A stretch of DNA of 50,160 nt, taken from NCBI GenBank assembly GCA_947623645.1, contig CANQHK010000001.1, positions 1 to 50,160 of the forward strand. The letters run 5' to 3'. This stretch comes from an uncultured Bacilli bacterium. Its GTDB lineage: Bacteria > Bacillota_I > Bacilli_A > RF39 > UBA660. The translations under genes were made by a program, and so were the position numbers. The notes beneath the pieces were generated by a model. The model was given only the letters and a program-made list of their open reading frames with translations. It made no database searches and was not told the DNA's origin. This document shows, in pieces, positions 4,938-43,033 of this stretch. Position 1 is the first letter of the stretch; each line of letters starts with the position of its first letter.

Positions 4938-7900
4938 CTAACTTTCGGAATTCTCTGCTAATTTTTCATAATATTCATAACGCATCTTTGCATGTTCCTC
5001 ATTCTTTTTTAAGAGTTCTTCACATTTTTCTTTATGAACGTATTCAAGCATTCGATACCGATCTTCTCCTTTTAAGAATTCTTGATACTTTGAAAAATCA
5101 GCTTTCGAGTCAAGGGAGAAAATCTTCGTTCTTGGATCATAATGGAAAAGTGGAAAATAACCAGAGAGAACAGCATCTTTTTCTTCTTGAATAGAGTTTT
5201 CCATTCCCTTTAAAATTCCTTGTGCAATACATGGAGAATAAGCAAGAATGAAAGATGGTCCCTCGTAAGACACTGCTTCTTCTAAAACTTTCACAGTATG
5301 TTGCATGTTGGCTCCCATAGAAATAGCACCAACATAGACATGAGGATAAGTAAGAGCAATTTTCGCAAGATCTTTTTTCGCTGTTTCTTTTCCTTTCGAA
5401 GTAAACTTCGCAACGGAAGCAGTTTTACTCGATTTTGAAGATTGCCCTCCTGTATTCGAATAAACCTCTGTATCCAATACTACAATCGTAACATCTTCGT
5501 GGTTGGCCAAAACATGGTCAATTCCAGAAAATCCAATATCGTACGCCCAACCATCTCCACCGATAATAAAGAAGTTTTTCTTTTTAATAAACATCTTCAA
5601 CTGTTGAAGTTCTATAATATTTGATTTTTCTACCAAAGAATAAAGTTTTTCACTATTTTCTGTAGTAACTTTTTCTAAATAAGAATCGACGACCTCTTCA
5701 TCAAGGAAAGTTCGATATTTCGAAATTAAAGTTCGAATCTTTTCTTTCATAACATCATCAGCAATTTTCATTCCATAACCATATTCAGCATTATCTTCAA
5801 ATAAAGAATTAGCCCATGGTACGTTCCAAGCCGTCGTTGGTAAAGAAGCACTGTAAATAGAAGAACATCCAGTTGCATTACTAATGACTAAAGAATCTCC
5901 AAAAAGTTGAGAAATCAACCTCAAATAAGGAGTTTCTCCACATCCAGCACAAGCCCCAGGGAAAGTAAATCTTGGCTTTTGGAATTGGCTTCCCTTAACC
6001 GTTGCTTTTGGAAGAACATCTTTATAAGTTACTTTTTCAAATAAATATTTCCATGCGTCCTCAAATCCCTCTTCTTGAAGATGCGCAACACTATCCATAA
6101 AAAGAGCTTTTTCTCCTTTTTTACCAGGACAAATATTGGCACATAATTTACATCCCGTACAATCTGGAATGGAAGGACACACGACAAAATATAATTTTTG
6201 ATTTGGAATGTTTGCATCGCGGGCAAGTTTTTGAACAATTTCTGGTGCATTCTTATACTCTTCTTCTGTTAATAAGAAAGGTCGAATAACCGCATGCGGG
6301 CAAACAAAAGAACAAAGATTACATTGAATACAATTTTCTGGTTTAAAGTGCGGAGCAAAGGAAGAAGTACCACGTTTTTCAATATTGGAAAGTCCCCCCT
6401 CAAAAGTACCATCGCTATGTTTTAAGAAACTACTAACAGGAAGACTATCCCCTTGTGCTTTATTCATCGCATCCATCAAAGAATCATTAGAAACCGTTAA
6501 GGCATCTCCTCCAAGAGCAGGATCAATCGAAACTTCAAAGAAAGCATCCAAACTAAGATCAATTGCTTCTTTATTTTTATCAGCTATAGAATTTCCTTTC
6601 TTTCCAAATTTAACATCGATGGTCTTTTTCATAAAGGCAATGGCATCATCAAAATTCAAAAGATTTCCGAGTTTAAAAATACCAACTTCCATGATACTAC
6701 TAATTTTATTATCAAGACCTACTTGTTTACTAATTTTTAAAGCATCAATGCAATATAGATGAGCATTTTTTTCTTTTAATAATTCGAGTTCCTCTTTGGT
6801 GAAAAGTCTTAAAATATTATCTCCTGTTCGATCGGTATTAATAAGAACAATTCCATTTTCACGAATCGAAGATACGACATCAAATTTCTTAAAATAACTT
6901 TCTTTTGTACAAACAATCATATCAGCATTTTCGATATAATATGGAGAATGAATTTCTTCTTTAGAGAATCGTAAATGACTTTTGGTAACTCCTCCTGATT
7001 TTTTAGAATCGTATTGGAAGTATCCTTGAACATAATCATCCGTATTTTCTCCAGTAATTTTCATAATATCTTTACTAGCACTAACCATTCCATCGCTTCC
7101 ATAACCCCAAATCAAAAATTCTTTTCTTTTTCCACCAATAACGATAGGAACTTCTTTTAAACTTAAATTGGTAACGTCATCTTCAATTCCTATTGTGAAG
7201 TTATGATGAATCGTATTATGAATTAAAGTTTCATAGACTCCTTGGATTTGAGATGGCGTTGTATTTTTACTCGATAGACCATATCTTCCACCATAAATTT
7301 CAATATTTCTAGAAGAAAGAGCTGCTACAACATCTTTATAAAGAGGTTCTCCACCACTTCCTGGTTCTTTCGTTCGATCTAGTACAGCAATTTTTTCTAC
7401 TGATTCTGGTAAAGAATCAAGGAGATGTTTCATGGAGAAAGGTCGATATAAATGAACCTCGATAAGACCAACCTCATCTCCTCTTTTTTCAATAACTTCC
7501 CGAATTGTATCGCAGACACTTCCCATAGCAACAATTACATATTTGCTGTTTGGACTTCCGTAGTAATTAAAGAGTTGATAATTTCTACCCAACTTTTGAT
7601 TGATTTTTTTCATATATTGATCAACAATATCAGGAATTTTATCATAGTAAGAATTTCTTACTTCTGTCATTTGAAAATAAACATCATCATTTTGAGCTGT
7701 ACCTCTTGTTACAGGATTCGTAGTAAGGCTACGATTCCGAAACTCCTGCAAAGCCTCTTCATCGATTAAAGACTTTAAAAATTCAGGATCTGGAATTTCT
7801 ACTTTTTGAAGTTCGTGAGAAGTTCTAAAACCATCAAAAAAGTGAAGAAAAGGAACTCTTCCTCGAATGGCTGAAAGATGACTCACTGCAGATAAATCTG

Positions 7901-8348
7901 CTGCTTGTTGAGGATTGGTCGATGCAAGCATAGCAAAGCCAGTCATTCTGGTTGCATAAATATCTTGATGATCTCCAAAAATAGATAAAGCATGTGTTGC
8001 AATGCTACGTGCTGCAACATGAATAACAAGGGGAAGTTGTTCTCCTGCAATTTTATACATATTCGGAATCATCAAAAGAAGTCCTTGACTTGCCGTAAAC
8101 GTCGTCGTGAGACAGCCCGCTTGAAGAGATCCATGAATCATACCTGCCGCCCCTGCTTCCGATTGCATTTCTACAACTTTTACAGGGTTGCCAAAAAAAT
8201 TAAGTCTTTTATTTCCAGACCATACATCTGTAAACTCCGCCATAGGAGAAGCTGGGGTGATCGGATAAATCCCTGCTACTTCTGTAAAATGATAGGAAAC
8301 TGTAGAACAAGCTTCGTTCCCATCCATAATTTTCTTTTCCATTTTCAT
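4938..8348 (-). CDS. nifJ: pyruvate:ferredoxin (flavodoxin) oxidoreductase
   Basis: 1136 aa. Two 4Fe-4S motifs, CIQCNLCSFVCPHAV and CTGCKLCANICP. TPP-binding GGDGWAYDIG. N-terminus MDGNEA...AGIYPITPASPMAE. Confidence 0.95.
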   Translation of the reverse strand: MKMEKKIMDGNEACSTVSYHFTEVAGIYPITPASPMAEFTDVWSGNKRLNFFGNPVKVVEMQSEAGAAGMIHGSLQAGCLTTTFTASQGLLLMIPNMYKIAGEQLPLVIHVAARSIATHALSIFGDHQDIYATRMTGFAMLASTNPQQAADLSAVSHLSAIRGRVPFLHFFDGFRTSHELQKVEIPDPEFLKSLIDEEALQEFRNRSLTTNPVTRGTAQNDDVYFQMTEVRNSYYDKIPDIVDQYMKKINQKLGRNYQLFNYYGSPNSKYVIVAMGSVCDTIREVIEKRGDEVGLIEVHLYRPFSMKHLLDSLPESVEKIAVLDRTKEPGSGGEPLYKDVVAALSSRNIEIYGGRYGLSSKNTTPSQIQGVYETLIHNTIHHNFTIGIEDDVTNLSLKEVPIVIGGKRKEFLIWGYGSDGMVSASKDIMKITGENTDDYVQGYFQYDSKKSGGVTKSHLRFSKEEIHSPYYIENADMIVCTKESYFKKFDVVSSIRENGIVLINTDRTGDNILRLFTKEELELLKEKNAHLYCIDALKISKQVGLDNKISSIMEVGIFKLGNLLNFDDAIAFMKKTIDVKFGKKGNSIADKNKEAIDLSLDAFFEVSIDPALGGDALTVSNDSLMDAMNKAQGDSLPVSSFLKHSDGTFEGGLSNIEKRGTSSFAPHFKPENCIQCNLCSFVCPHAVIRPFLLTEEEYKNAPEIVQKLARDANIPNQKLYFVVCPSIPDCTGCKLCANICPGKKGEKALFMDSVAHLQEEGFEDAWKYLFEKVTYKDVLPKATVKGSQFQKPRFTFPGACAGCGETPYLRLISQLFGDSLVISNATGCSSIYSASLPTTAWNVPWANSLFEDNAEYGYGMKIADDVMKEKIRTLISKYRTFLDEEVVDSYLEKVTTENSEKLYSLVEKSNIIELQQLKMFIKKKNFFIIGGDGWAYDIGFSGIDHVLANHEDVTIVVLDTEVYSNTGGQSSKSSKTASVAKFTSKGKETAKKDLAKIALTYPHVYVGAISMGANMQHTVKVLEEAVSYEGPSFILAYSPCIAQGILKGMENSIQEEKDAVLSGYFPLFHYDPRTKIFSLDSKADFSKYQEFLKGEDRYRMLEYVHKEKCEELLKKNEEHAKMRYEYYEKLAENSES

Positions 8349-9401: not shown

Positions 9402-10427
9402 TTAGTCAGTAACAATCCAAGCGGTTGGAATATTTCTAAGTCCTTCTGCACCCCCTGCTACGGGATTCGATGCAACTTCTCCTTCTAAGATTAACGCAGA
9501 AGAACTTCCACCATCCATATTGGCAGCATTTACAGCGCCATATCTTTGCATAATTTCTGTAAGTTCTACCATTCCACAACCAATGCTAGCAGCTCGTCTT
9601 CCATCGATAATTAAGAATAAAACGATTCCATCTTTTCTTTGTCCGATCGCTGTTCTAGGAGCAATTCCCCATCCTCCATCACCTTGAACAAAGGAAGGTT
9701 TCCCATTAACAATCAAAAATGGCCCAAATTCAACGCCATCCCGAATTCCTCTTGCAATTGCTTGTTTTGCAGTCATTCTTCCAAGAACTAAAACATTGTT
9801 CTGGTCAAATCCAACCATTCCTCCTCCAACTTTAGCATCTTCATAATCCCAGACAACTTTTCCGTTTTGAATAACTGTTCCATGAGCAATCGCACCATTA
9901 CTATTCCAATCCGGATCATAAAATCCACTTGCATTAATTGCAACATGTGCATTATAATGTCTAGAAATAACTTTTACAGATTGTCCAGTAGTTCCAAGTT
10001 TTGAAGTTGTACCAATATGTACTTTGGAAGCATCATAAATTGCTACTAAATATCCTTTATAACCGGTTCCACTAACATTGATCACTTTATATAATGCATC
10101 TCTGTCTCTTTTTAAAATTTCTTCTTCATACTTGGATGCATATTTTTGTTCTTCTTGAAAATCAATTAATGTTGTATCCGTATCTTCTCCTGATTCAATT
10201 ACTTTATTATAAGCAAGAACTCTTGCAATTTCTTCATCAGAATAAAACCATGTTGCTAAATAATGATGTGTCTTCGTTGTCATTGCTGTTGTAATTAAAA
10301 GATTTCGAAATCCTGACCATGGTCCATATAATAGGAAAGTACCACCAGATATTCCAATCATTATAATTGAAAAAAACAAGATAAAGAAACGCTTAATTCG
10401 AATGTTAATTTTTCTCTTTAACTTCAT
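9402..10427 (-). CDS. phosphodiester glycosidase family protein (NAGPA/DUF2233-like), membrane anchored
   Basis: INASGF, GPFLIVNGK, PRTAIGQRKDG, LIIDGR, NMDGGSSS. An N-terminal TM helix is present. Confidence 0.7.
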   Translation of the reverse strand: MKLKRKINIRIKRFFILFFSIIMIGISGGTFLLYGPWSGFRNLLITTAMTTKTHHYLATWFYSDEEIARVLAYNKVIESGEDTDTTLIDFQEEQKYASKYEEEILKRDRDALYKVINVSGTGYKGYLVAIYDASKVHIGTTSKLGTTGQSVKVISRHYNAHVAINASGFYDPDWNSNGAIAHGTVIQNGKVVWDYEDAKVGGGMVGFDQNNVLVLGRMTAKQAIARGIRDGVEFGPFLIVNGKPSFVQGDGGWGIAPRTAIGQRKDGIVLFLIIDGRRAASIGCGMVELTEIMQRYGAVNAANMDGGSSSALILEGEVASNPVAGGAEGLRNIPTAWIVTD

Positions 10428-10824: not shown

Positions 10825-10930
10825 GTAAATCCTCCTCTATCGTACTAATATATTTATATCATATTTTTAAATATGTGTAAAGAAAAAATTCAATCTTACG
10901 AAAGAATTCCTTGATATAAAAAGAAATTTT

Positions 10931-11515
10931 TTATTGTCTAGTAAAGAAGGAGAGGATTTTTGAAAAATGATAGAGAATTCTTGTTGAGTTATTAATAGCA
11001 ATACTTTTTCCCATTGCTTTTCCTCCAATTGTTAAGGATGCAACTAGGGCCGTTACAATCAAAGTAACAGGGAGTATGGAAATACTAAGATTCTTGGCAA
11101 TCGTTGTAGAAATTGCAACTGCAGTGGAACCACTCATAATTCCACAGATATCTCCAATAACATCATTACAAAAACTTGATGCTTTTTCACTATTTTGAAT
11201 TAGTTTACTTGCAAGACGTGCTCCTCGAACTCTTTTTGTCGCCATTGAATGAAAGGTAGAGGCATTCGCAACTGTAACACTGATTCCAATCATATCAAAT
11301 AAAATTCCAAGAGCAATAAAAAAAATGGTCATAAAACCAGCGAAAAAGAATCCTACCGATGGAATAATGGTCTCCGATAAAAAAGAAAAGATAAAAGAAA
11401 TCCAGAAAGCACTAACACTTACAATAAAAATCCAACTATAATCCGATTTTTTTCGAACTTCGTTTTTTCTTTTTACCTTTTTTGAATATTTTTCTTTATA
11501 TTTTTTGGTTTTCAA
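10931..11515 (-). CDS. oapA: OLE-associated protein A-like small multi-pass membrane protein
   Basis: 194 aa with a Lys-rich N-terminus and about four TM helices. It has conserved-looking FDMIGISV and NDVIGDICG (DxxxD). TTG start with RBS AAAGAGGTGG. It follows the large structured RNA directly. Confidence 0.6.
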   Translation of the reverse strand: MKTKKYKEKYSKKVKRKNEVRKKSDYSWIFIVSVSAFWISFIFSFLSETIIPSVGFFFAGFMTIFFIALGILFDMIGISVTVANASTFHSMATKRVRGARLASKLIQNSEKASSFCNDVIGDICGIMSGSTAVAISTTIAKNLSISILPVTLIVTALVASLTIGGKAMGKSIAINNSTRILYHFSKILSFFTRQ

Positions 11516-11537
11516 AAAACCACCTCTTTAAAAAATT

Positions 11538-12117
11538 ATGTAGAGATGGCAAGAAGCAATAAACTTTGTATCTTAGGTCAAGTTGGATTTCCCTCGCCTC
11601 TTACACATTCGTTACCAAATATGCAGTTTCCTTTTCAAAGAGTGAATAGTACATCACTGTATCTATGACTTGATTACCACTTAGTATACACTGCAATCTT
11701 GCGTTCTTAAACACTCTAGAAGTTTTCCTTAAGACACGTTTATGAATTGTTTAGACTTTTTTGCAAAAATTGTTTCAAGGAGCAATACTCATATAAAAAG
11801 ATGTACACCTTTTAATAAGCTGTCTCTATCCCCAAATTTTCACGCAAGCCAAGCTACACTATTCCAAGCTTTCACCTAGAATAGGTTCTCTCCCTAGTTC
11901 GTAAGTTTCCCTACAAAGATAGGTCTCCGCGATAACCATGGGTCGGGGTATGTATGCCATTACATATCGCCCACAGTATCTATCATTCCCAGCACTCACC
12001 CGAAACTGGGCGTAACAAGCAAGCACCAGAAGCTTCACAGATATGCTCTTCAACGATATTTTAACCTCGTCTTCACAAAACTTATGCATCAACTAGAATA
12101 GTGCGCCATCTCTACGA
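11538..12117 (-). ncRNA. ole: large structured ncRNA, best interpreted as OLE RNA
   Basis: A ~580-nt G+C-enriched block without a credible ORF. A perfect 11-bp closing helix pairs GUAGAGAUGGC (12115-12105) with GCCAUCUCUAC (11550-11540). Many internal hairpins are visible. It has its own promoter and an oapA-like gene immediately downstream. Confidence 0.6.
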
Positions 12118-12122
12118 TAAAG

Positions 12123-12150
12123 ATTATATCATATTTTAGAAAAAGTGCAA
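12123..12150 (-). promoter_or_regulatory. extended -10 promoter for the large ncRNA
   Basis: Minus strand: TTGCAC (12150-12145), 16 nt, TGaTATAAT (-10 at 12128-12123). The TSS would fall a few nt before the closing helix. Confidence 0.5.
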
Positions 12151-12172
12151 GAAAAAAAGCCATCTAGGCTTT
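12151..12172 (-). terminator. terminator after the 201-aa gene
   Basis: Minus strand: AAAGCC-TAGAT-GGCTTT followed by TTTTTC. Confidence 0.5.
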
Positions 12173-12179
12173 CTTCCTC

Positions 12180-12785
12180 TTATTGAACTTCAACAATCGA
12201 AAGTTTCATATCTTCATGAACAAGAACTAAGGTTTTCTTTTTGTCATATCCTAAATCTTTTTTATAAATAATTTTTGCATCGATTTGATAAGCAGAATCA
12301 TCTTTCACATCTTGATAAGAATAAGAAGTATTCGAAACTTTTTCAATCGATACATCTTTTACCGTTGGAAGCTGTTGACGGCGATTTCCGTAAATATTAC
12401 TTTGTACATATTTATAAAGAGTATCGGTTGCTTTATTTTTAAAATTTTCTTGAATACTCGAATGAAGAAATTGTACTCCTCCAACATCCTGATTGGTTAC
12501 TTTATTGGATAAAGTATAAAAATCGATTAAAAACATTTTACTAATAAGTTTGGCATAATTTTCTTCATCGATGTGTTGATCTTCTAATTCTTCTTCTAAA
12601 TCTCGATAATATTTTTTAAAGATTTTGGTTTGATTGCTTTCCAACTGATAAGAATAGTCTGGAATACTAGCAACAACTCGAATTACATCGCTTTTAAAAA
12701 ACTTTTGGTAAATAAGAACAGCTAGAACAACAGCAAGAACGCCAAGAAATATACGTCTATAAAAATAAACTTTTTTCTTTTTCAT
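12180..12785 (-). CDS. hypothetical membrane-anchored protein, translationally coupled to ltaS
   Basis: 201 aa with an N-terminal TM helix. Its start overlaps the ltaS stop (ATGA at 12782-12785). Confidence 0.55.
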   Translation of the reverse strand: MKKKKVYFYRRIFLGVLAVVLAVLIYQKFFKSDVIRVVASIPDYSYQLESNQTKIFKKYYRDLEEELEDQHIDEENYAKLISKMFLIDFYTLSNKVTNQDVGGVQFLHSSIQENFKNKATDTLYKYVQSNIYGNRRQQLPTVKDVSIEKVSNTSYSYQDVKDDSAYQIDAKIIYKKDLGYDKKKTLVLVHEDMKLSIVEVQ

Positions 12786-28133: not shown

Positions 28134-28210
28134 TGGGGCGGGATAAGGGAATCGAACCCTTGCATACTGGAGCCACAATCCAGCGTGTTAACCACTTCAC
28201 CAATACCGCC
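28134..28210 (-). tRNA. tRNA-His (GUG)
   Basis: Hand-folded cloverleaf. Anticodon loop UUGUGGC, T-loop GGGTTCGATTCCC, encoded G-1 pairing with C73, encoded CCA. There is one U-C mismatch at 5:68. Confidence 0.85.
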
Positions 28211-33972: not shown

Positions 33973-34049
33973 TGGTGTCCACGGCGAGAGTCGAACTCGC
34001 GACCTTTGCCTTCGGAGGGCAACACTCTATCCAACTGAGCTACGTGAAC
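33973..34049 (-). tRNA. tRNA-Arg (CCG)
   Basis: Hand-folded cloverleaf. GTAGCTCAGTTGGATAGAG D-arm, anticodon loop CUCCGAA, T-loop GAGTTCGACTCTC, encoded CCA. Confidence 0.85.
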
Positions 34050-42667: not shown

Positions 42668-43033
42668 TAAAAAATACTTTATAAGCCATGTTCTGTAACC
42701 TATTTCTAGGCGACAAACATTTATCTATTGATTTCTCAATCCTCGATTTTGTTCTTTTTCCTCCATCGAAGCTCCCCTACCAAAATTTGGGTTTCTCACT
42801 CGTGGGGCTTACCAACGTTTCACCTTTTTCTTTCGAAAAATAATCGTTCCTGTGGCACTTTACGGTTACTTTTTCCATCGCTTTACGCATTAGGAAATTT
42901 TACCTCCGTCAGAATCCTGCCTAGGGTTATTTTTTCCCCTAGCACGAACACTACTATCATCCCAGATAGTGTGAGCATGGACTTTCCTCTATATTCCAAG
43001 AATACAGCGTTTGTCAAAGTATTTTTTATTCAT
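42668..43033 (-). ncRNA. rnpB: RNase P RNA, type B
   Basis: Minus strand carries AGAGGAAAGTCCATGCTCACAC, GTGCCACAG, GAGAAACCCAAATTTTGGTAGGGG and ACAGAACATGGCTTAT. P1 pairs AAAAATACTTT (about 43031-43021) with AAAGTATTTTT (about 42680-42670). Confidence 0.9.

Follow-up and report, generated by a model that had tools for sequence, protein, structure and literature searches.

An OLE RNA and its OapA membrane partner in the reduced genome of a gut Bacilli bacterium

The window analysed here is a 50,160-nt stretch of DNA from an uncultured Bacilli bacterium (GTDB lineage RF39; UBA660; assembly GCA_947623645.1, contig CANQHK010000001.1), and on its minus strand it encodes an OLE RNA (11530-12125) together with the membrane partner of this RNA, OapA (10931-11515). 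Taken as a whole, the locus is very probably best explained as an OLE RNA and OapA pair, and it is an ordinary member of this well-described and already known class. A first-pass annotation made from the sequence alone had proposed such a pair, pointing to a G+C-enriched block poor in open reading frames (ORFs) and closed by a perfect 11-bp helix, with an extended -10 promoter after the terminator of the upstream gene, a TTG-started four-transmembrane protein of 194 aa immediately downstream, a setting of cell-envelope genes, and no oapB or oapC candidates in the window. These proposals were borne out by the analyses described below, except for one of the local hairpins that had been listed with them.

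Using Rfam cmscan we compared the whole window with all 4227 Rfam families and detected RF01071 (OLE) with a score of 334.3 bits (E 1.2e-94; gathering score 50 bits), in a match that covers model positions 1-616 and is not truncated. No other family passed its threshold at 11530-12125, and because OLE alone did so, ROOL, GOLLD and raiA, which had been named as alternatives, are excluded. The size of the block and the density of its hairpins would also suit some other large ornate RNA, one of these three or an undescribed one, that is like OLE only in size and position, but the full-length match to the single family reported, and the ~180 alignment columns that are invariant across 50 OLE RNAs including that of the window, make this exceedingly improbable. 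The assembly holds one OLE copy only.

The OLE block has a G+C content of 38% compared with 30.4% for the genome, with the enrichment lying mostly in its 5' half (0.41-0.42 at 11750-12199) and being weak in the 3' half. In the ~590 nt between the promoter and the oapA Shine-Dalgarno sequence there was no credible ORF; the sole ORF of at least 50 aa inside the block starts with TTG, and the bases upstream of it, GGCGCACTATTCTAG, show no Shine-Dalgarno sequence. While an open frame of 77 codons does exist here, it lies entirely inside conserved RNA helices, and conservation takes the form of covariation in paired columns and invariant loops rather than being codon-like, and it is almost certainly not a real small gene in a coding region. 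The OLE transcript probably starts near 12115-12117, judging from the position of the -10 element, and the folded core of the RNA ends with P1 at 11540.

We assessed conservation of the RNA in an alignment of the window sequence with 49 OLE RNAs from related loci (n=50), using helix numbers that are our own inferred mapping of the Rfam model onto the published numbering, anchored by the positions of P5 and P6 (PMC9723947) and of P13 and P14.1 (PMC7936274). The perfect 11-bp closing helix corresponds to P1. Compensatory changes maintain its inner 5-6 pairs, while the outer five pairs are less conserved and the 11-bp length is therefore a local feature; the U-rich tail that follows P1 is also found in the Rfam consensus and in relatives. 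The pairs of P2 are 98.7-100% paired in the 50 sequences, with compensatory changes at two of them. For P1 and P2 together, 81.9% of cells are paired compared with 38-45% (about 42%) when the 3' partner is slid, compensatory changes occur at 11 of the 19 pairs, and the covariation score was reached by none of 500 shuffles. As examples, one P1 pair is CG in 24 sequences, UA in 8 and AU in 2, and one P2 pair is UG in 25, CG in 10, UA in 8 and GC in 7. Both long-range closing helices are thus supported by covariation, and among the OapA binding sites that have been mapped, one falls on a palindrome in or near P2 (PMC12265935). Among the local hairpins in the first-pass annotation, TATGTA/TACATA corresponds to P6.1 and GCAA/TTGC falls within the long-range P12, while TCTTAA/TTAAGA is probably not native because it conflicts with the P2 and P12 helices of the model: it would enclose the P2 3' strand, whereas Rfam aligns TTAAGA as the partner of the 3' end (P12).

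At the level of sequence, the loops associated with OLE dimerisation are all present. The P5.1 loop is a dimerisation contact in cryo-EM models (PMC12265935) and its bases GCCCA are invariant in the 50 relatives; the P6.1 loop AAUGGCA is likewise invariant and is complementary to the P5.1 loop (GGC to GCC). The core of the P9 loop is a 4-nt palindrome in 45 of the 50 RNAs (GUAC 19, GGCC 20, AGCU 5, GAUC 1), which fits the published P9-P9 kissing loop (PMC12265935), and the switching from one palindrome to another across lineages reads as covariation of a self-complementary kissing loop. The RNA also contains a small GGAAAA hairpin and the P12-P15 domain, and the hairpin assigned to P13 was recognised as an OapB-type site from features described in PMC7936274.

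There are two departures from the OLE consensus, namely a shortened P7, with a segment of 36 nt compared with a median of 54 (range 19-65) in the 50 relatives, and the loss of a small hairpin at model positions 425-436. A P7 tip motif (GCCUAUACA ... GAYGGAC, alignment columns ~250-290) occurs in about half of the related OLE RNAs and is absent from the window RNA and its nearest relatives. Among 36 other genomes of the same family that were searched, OLE was found in 21 and gave no match in 15; the match was ~390 nt long in one, 480-500 nt in six and ~535-615 nt in the rest, which places the window RNA among the long type within its family. The genomes lacking OLE and the short copies indicate that loss and reduction are under way in the lineage. 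These observations (including copies of only ~390-490 nt), the two departures and the failure to find OapB or OapC are what would be cited in favour of a decaying relic, an OLE-derived sequence without function in a genome that is shrinking, its P7 truncated and its protein partners lost. Against this, all other helices, the invariant loop bases, P1 and P2 and the promoter are kept, oapA is intact with an invariant DxxxD, and neither P7 nor P8 takes part in dimer contacts, both being dispensable in variants found in nature (PMC12265935, PMC11332333). We therefore consider a relic very unlikely and a maintained OLE RNA the better reading.

Further characterisation of the 194-aa protein showed every OapA property that we examined, and its gene reads as a single frame with no interruption. 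Its only Pfam match is to CNNM (PF01595), which at 25.8 bits is sub-threshold (cut-off 28.4), and OapA proteins are known to cluster as the next-best matches to the CNNM model, below MpfA (PMC11332333). No NCBIfam family was found for it, and a sequence search of the PDB returned no match, with no OapA chain among the entries searched. In a large protein collection there were 4014 relatives, and the 120 listed were all ~192-206 aa. In an alignment of 46 sequences, with homologues 41-79% identical to the window protein, D74 (in FDMIG) and D118 and D122 (in NDVIGD), the motifs picked out by the first-pass annotation, are invariant, and on sequence D118-V-I-G-D122 is the DxxxD motif that defines OapA. 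Lys and Arg make up 13 of the 26 residues at the N-terminus, and every homologue inspected has a basic tail.

An AlphaFold2 model from the homologue alignment (mean pLDDT 82.9, pTM 0.72) contains long helices at residues 26-53, 56-82, 109-143 and 147-175, which we read as four predicted membrane spans. The top four PDB matches to this model in Foldseek were MtCorB (7M1T, chains B and A, and 7M1U) and the CorC transmembrane domain (7CFG), all with a probability of 1.00 and query-normalised TM-scores of 0.42-0.51, compared with 0.21 or less for all others. MtCorB is an archaeal CNNM transporter and CorC a bacterial one, and CorB and CorC proteins transport Mg2+. One of these entries, 7M1U, is a top structural match reported for OapA of Halalkalibacterium (Bacillus) halodurans (PMC11332333). 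A small protein with four modelled helices and a basic cluster, the DxxxD motif and a distant CNNM-like sequence and fold are thus combined in one gene that begins 25 nt beyond the end of P1, immediately downstream of the RNA. Like MpfA, CorB and CorC, the protein has weak CNNM similarity, and its model superposes on the MtCorB and CorC transmembrane domains; unlike them it is only 194 aa long, has no CBS pair and no CorC/HlyC domain, carries DxxxD and has a fourth long helix that is predicted to span the membrane. Membership of the MpfA family is rejected on this length and on the sub-threshold CNNM score of its sole Pfam match.

We also evaluated the linkage of the two genes in 80 genome loci recovered through similarity to the window OapA. 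In 76 of the 80 an OLE RNA lies upstream of the oapA homologue on the same strand, which again argues for the protein being OapA; among the remaining four, one locus was too short, two had OLE on another contig and one came from a genome in which no OLE was found. Three loci (L031, L057 and L068) have an oapA homologue 46-50% identical to that of the window and no OLE within ~6 kb upstream, with OLE on another contig at 408-411 bits in two of these genomes and none found in the third, and they may represent second oapA copies or unlinked pairs. In eight other relatives (L021, L071, L054, L035, L055, L081, L032 and L041) OLE and oapA are not adjacent and are 0.5-2.2 kb apart, which indicates that something has been inserted between them.

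The pair appears to be transcribed from a promoter of its own. A terminator-like hairpin adjoins the stop codon (12180) of the upstream 201-aa gene and is followed by the putative extended -10 promoter, as the first-pass annotation had it. In most of the 50 related loci a TATAAT is found at this spacing from P1, which supports a dedicated OLE promoter, while a consensus promoter scan missed the site because its -35 element matches at only three of six positions. A terminator scan detected no terminator-like site between OLE and oapA and co-transcription is therefore likely, which would place the RNA and oapA under one extended -10 promoter. A 14-nt string from the extended -10 region, AAAATATGATATAA, occurs at 12124-12137 (-) and again at 10854-10867 (-), where it precedes the 128-aa gene that follows oapA; given the identical string, this gene probably has its own promoter of the OLE type.

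The shared promoter, the lack of a terminator and a distance of only 12 nt from the end of P1 to the Shine-Dalgarno sequence could also be features of an RNA that is mainly cis-acting, that is, a long 5' leader controlling the translation or stability of oapA rather than a component of a trans-acting particle. However, two related genomes have their oapA homologue and their only OLE match on different contigs, and several relatives have the 0.5-2.2 kb gaps described above, which shows that OLE RNA is kept without direct adjacency to oapA. Furthermore, a 600-nt RNA with ~25% near-invariant bases far exceeds what a leader needs, and in H. halodurans OLE RNA is abundant and OapA-bound (PMC12265935) and arises by processing of a longer transcript (PMC11332333, PMC12265935). 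A leader is therefore a very improbable account of the RNA, and we retain the reading of an OLE RNA that works with OapA. Coordinates of all features are collected in Table 1.

Table 1. Positions of the OLE and oapA genes, their sequence elements and neighbouring features in the window
Feature	Position	Strand	Description or basis
OLE RNA gene	11530-12125	-	Rfam match, RF01071; 596 nt
Putative OLE-oapA promoter	12123-12150	-	TTGCAC (12145-12150), 16-nt spacer, extended -10 TGATATAAT (12123-12131); sequence
Terminator-like hairpin and T-run ending the upstream 201-aa gene	12149-12179	-	13-pair stem, T-rich tail
P1 5' strand	12105-12115	-	GTAGAGATGGC; perfect pairing with 11540-11550
P1 3' strand	11540-11550	-	GCCATCTCTAC, then U-rich tail; perfect 11-bp pairing with 12105-12115
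P2 5' strand	12093-12103	-	CACUAUUCUAG, with CUAG palindrome; pairs with 11712-11719
P2 3' strand	11712-11719	-	CUAGAGUG; partner of 12093-12103
Hairpin with A-rich loop (P4/P4a region)	12052-12071	-	Rfam positions 55-74; P number from our own mapping
Conserved J4a/5 segment, k-turn region	12033-12048	-	...CUGUGAAG; directly precedes P5/P5.1
P5/P5.1 hairpin	11986-12032	-	Loop ACGCCCAG (12006-12013); Rfam positions 94-138
P6/P6.1 hairpin	11931-11980	-	Loop AAUGGCA (11955-11961); Rfam positions 143-190
P7, shortened	11892-11923	-	Thirteen model positions deleted in Rfam alignment
P8 hairpin	11859-11885	-	Rfam positions 250-278; 27 nt, median 28
P9 long arm	11754-11850	-	Palindromic loop UGUACA (11802-11807); Rfam positions 287-385
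P13 hairpin, OapB-type site	11646-11666	-	GUGA tetraloop (11654-11657) and one-base bulge; Rfam positions 479-498
P14.1 hairpin	11603-11624	-	GUAA tetraloop; Rfam positions 521-541
Spurious 77-aa ORF inside the RNA	11859-12092	-	No Shine-Dalgarno; wholly within conserved paired RNA
oapA	10931-11515	-	TTG-started; 194 aa with a Lys/Arg-rich N-terminal tail and four long helices; ORF, profile and model
oapA Shine-Dalgarno	11520-11527	-	AGAGGTGG, 4 nt before TTG; sequence
DxxxD codons (D118 V I G D122)	11150-11164	-	Coordinates derived from ORF start
Phosphodiester glycosidase NAGPA (PF09992)	9402-10427	-	Downstream of oapA
Pyruvate:ferredoxin oxidoreductase	4938-8348	-	Downstream of NAGPA

The assembly comprises 1.20 Mb in 134 contigs with a G+C content of 30.4%, and is 89% complete and 3.6% contaminated. 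Relatives of the same family have genomes of 0.8-1.6 Mb, which suggests a reduced-genome lineage like RF39; the host is a gut Bacilli bacterium with a genome of ~1.2-1.3 Mb and not an extremophile. Most of the nearest loci belong to gut metagenome-assembled genomes whose titles read Bacilli, Mollicutes, Tenericutes, Bacillales or Bacillota, with rabbit, goat, mouse and human as sample sources. The Rfam scan also placed in the window a class B RNase P RNA (42677-43022 (-), 271.6 bits) and tRNA genes at 33976-34049 (-) and 28137-28209 (-). Class B RNase P RNA is the Bacillota type and its presence fits the assignment of the host, so that both the titles of the nearest loci and a second structured RNA place this OLE RNA in Bacillota. 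Several records whose OLE-oapA loci are syntenic with those of the Bacilli genomes (L004, L021, L022, L023, L027, L032, L009 and others) are titled Muribaculaceae, Bacteroidaceae or Candidatus Scybalousia, the last of which NCBI places under Bacteroidales; these titles seem to reflect errors of labelling or binning, not transfer to Bacteroidota.

As proposed in the first-pass annotation, genes for the cell envelope lie on both sides of the pair, with NAGPA downstream and an LtaS-type sulfatase-family enzyme upstream. The order OLE-oapA-NAGPA-pyruvate:ferredoxin oxidoreductase is kept in nearer loci, with NAGPA in 22 and the oxidoreductase in 14, while the upstream pair of the 201-aa protein and the LtaS-type enzyme is shared only with a genome of the same genus. 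Since cell-wall genes are among the frequent published neighbours of ole, and a contact of OLE domain 2 with the cell wall has been proposed (PMC12265935), this context is compatible with the literature and not new.

We then searched the assembly for proteins that accompany OLE or handle Mg2+. OapC (L7Ae/YbxF) was not found, nor was MpfA, and there is no CNNM protein other than OapA; CorA and bS21 are present and MgtE was not found. No OapB candidate was seen, in searches that used the Pfam KOW model, a YbzG-like motif and the map-infA junction rather than an OapB profile. Searching the genome with the KOW model at E values up to 10 returned NusG and L24 only. Regular expressions for KOW-like and YbzG-like motifs, applied to the ORFs of all six frames, likewise found nothing else, although for YbzG this is a weak test. 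At the map-infA junction, where ybzG (oapB) lies in B. subtilis, there was no intervening ORF. No KOW or OapB-like family appeared either when roughly half of the 182 small ORFs (bins 1-10 of 20, concatenated) were scanned with Pfam. Other small ORFs outside the window matched CotZ-like spore-coat, YqfQ-like, collagen-repeat and bAvd-like proteins, bAvd being an accessory protein of diversity-generating retroelements. From the combined KOW, motif, junction and small-ORF searches it is unlikely that the assembly encodes OapB, which extends to the assembly as a whole, provisionally at its level of completeness, the earlier remark that the window held no oapB or oapC. Not finding OapB, OapC or MpfA matches the published pattern for reduced-genome clades, as OapB and OapC are for the most part absent in the RF39 and TANB77 clades and MpfA is anticorrelated with OLE (PMC11332333).

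Several considerations weigh against our interpretation: the absence of OapB, OapC and MpfA is provisional because the assembly is 89% complete, the search for OapB used the KOW model, the YbzG-like motif and the map-infA junction, and a role in Mg2+ homeostasis or envelope stress is carried over from H. halodurans genetics.

OLE and OapA have been studied in H. halodurans, and partial cryo-EM structures exist for the RNAs of Clostridium acetobutylicum and C. botulinum (PMC12265935). The window RNA shares with these the P1/P2 closure, the P5.1 and P6.1 loops, the palindromic P9 loop, GNRA-capped P13 and P14.1 hairpins, and an oapA with DxxxD immediately downstream. It differs in having a putative promoter of its own and a cell-envelope neighbourhood instead of a place in a long isoprenoid/DNA-repair/translation operon, and in its shortened P7; searches of the assembly found neither OapC nor MpfA and turned up no candidate for OapB. 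The host differs as well, being a gut commensal with a small genome rather than an extremophile. Reduced OLE RNAs have also been described: variant 1, commonest in TANB77, has shorter P7, P8 and P9, often lacks the OapB site at the P13 tip and scores 310-390 bits, and variant 2, commonest in RF39, lacks P7 and P8 entirely (PMC11332333). The window RNA resembles both in the reduced genome of its host, its shortened P7 and the failure to find OapB and OapC, and its 334 bits fall within the variant 1 band, which was set with the authors' own model and not that of Rfam. It does not look like a typical variant 1, since the lengths of P8 and P9 are those usual in the clade and P13 retains its GNRA loop and bulge, and variant 2 is ruled out by the presence of both P7 and P8.

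The steps by which the pair might fold and assemble can be drawn by homology with OLE of H. halodurans and Clostridium. The RNA would adopt the conserved OLE architecture, in which P1 and P2 close the molecule and P4-P9 form a compact domain 1, and would dimerise through the P5.1 and P6.1 loops and the palindromic P9 loop. Dimers of OapA would anchor the RNA at the membrane by way of its palindromic sites close to P2 and P4a and of the basic N-terminal tail of OapA, so that the particle would sit at or across the membrane, where by analogy it may help the cell cope with excess Mg2+, alcohols, cold and poor carbon sources. We give about an even chance to the proposal that it controls divalent-cation balance, chiefly of Mg2+, and envelope stress. 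The genome has a CorA importer and no MpfA was found, and OapA may act as a CNNM-like transporter core, with the RNA taking the regulatory role of the CBS and CorC domains of MpfA-type proteins; the pair would then supply MpfA-like Mg2+ efflux or control opposite CorA, with RNA in place of the missing cytoplasmic regulatory domains.

The system appears here in a minimal two-part form of RNA and OapA without OapB or OapC, a form already described for reduced-genome gut Bacillota (PMC11332333). Nonetheless, the OapB-type P13 hairpin, with its GNRA loop and one-base bulge, and the k-turn J4a/5 segment are kept though neither OapB nor OapC was found. We tentatively raise, as a possibility we hold to be somewhat unlikely, that the lineage runs a minimal two-part particle in which these elements serve a role independent of OapB and OapC or bind a substitute protein. 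If so, P13 and J4a/5 could serve a tetraloop-receptor contact in RNA folding, or the binding of bS21, and the small pair would be a convenient minimal system for working out the role of OLE RNA. The conserved linkage to the phosphodiester glycosidase would then agree with the idea that OLE domain 2 touches the cell wall.

Nothing here is new in kind, as OLE and OapA in reduced-genome gut Bacillota without OapB or OapC have been published (PMC11332333), and the envelope genes nearby are a further anecdotal point for the cell-wall connection that has been proposed. The value of the locus is modest and lies in its being a clean and compact example, with one putative promoter, a 596-nt RNA and a 194-aa partner in a host that is not an extremophile, and minimal pairs of this kind lend themselves to heterologous reconstitution as a way to study what OLE RNA does biochemically.

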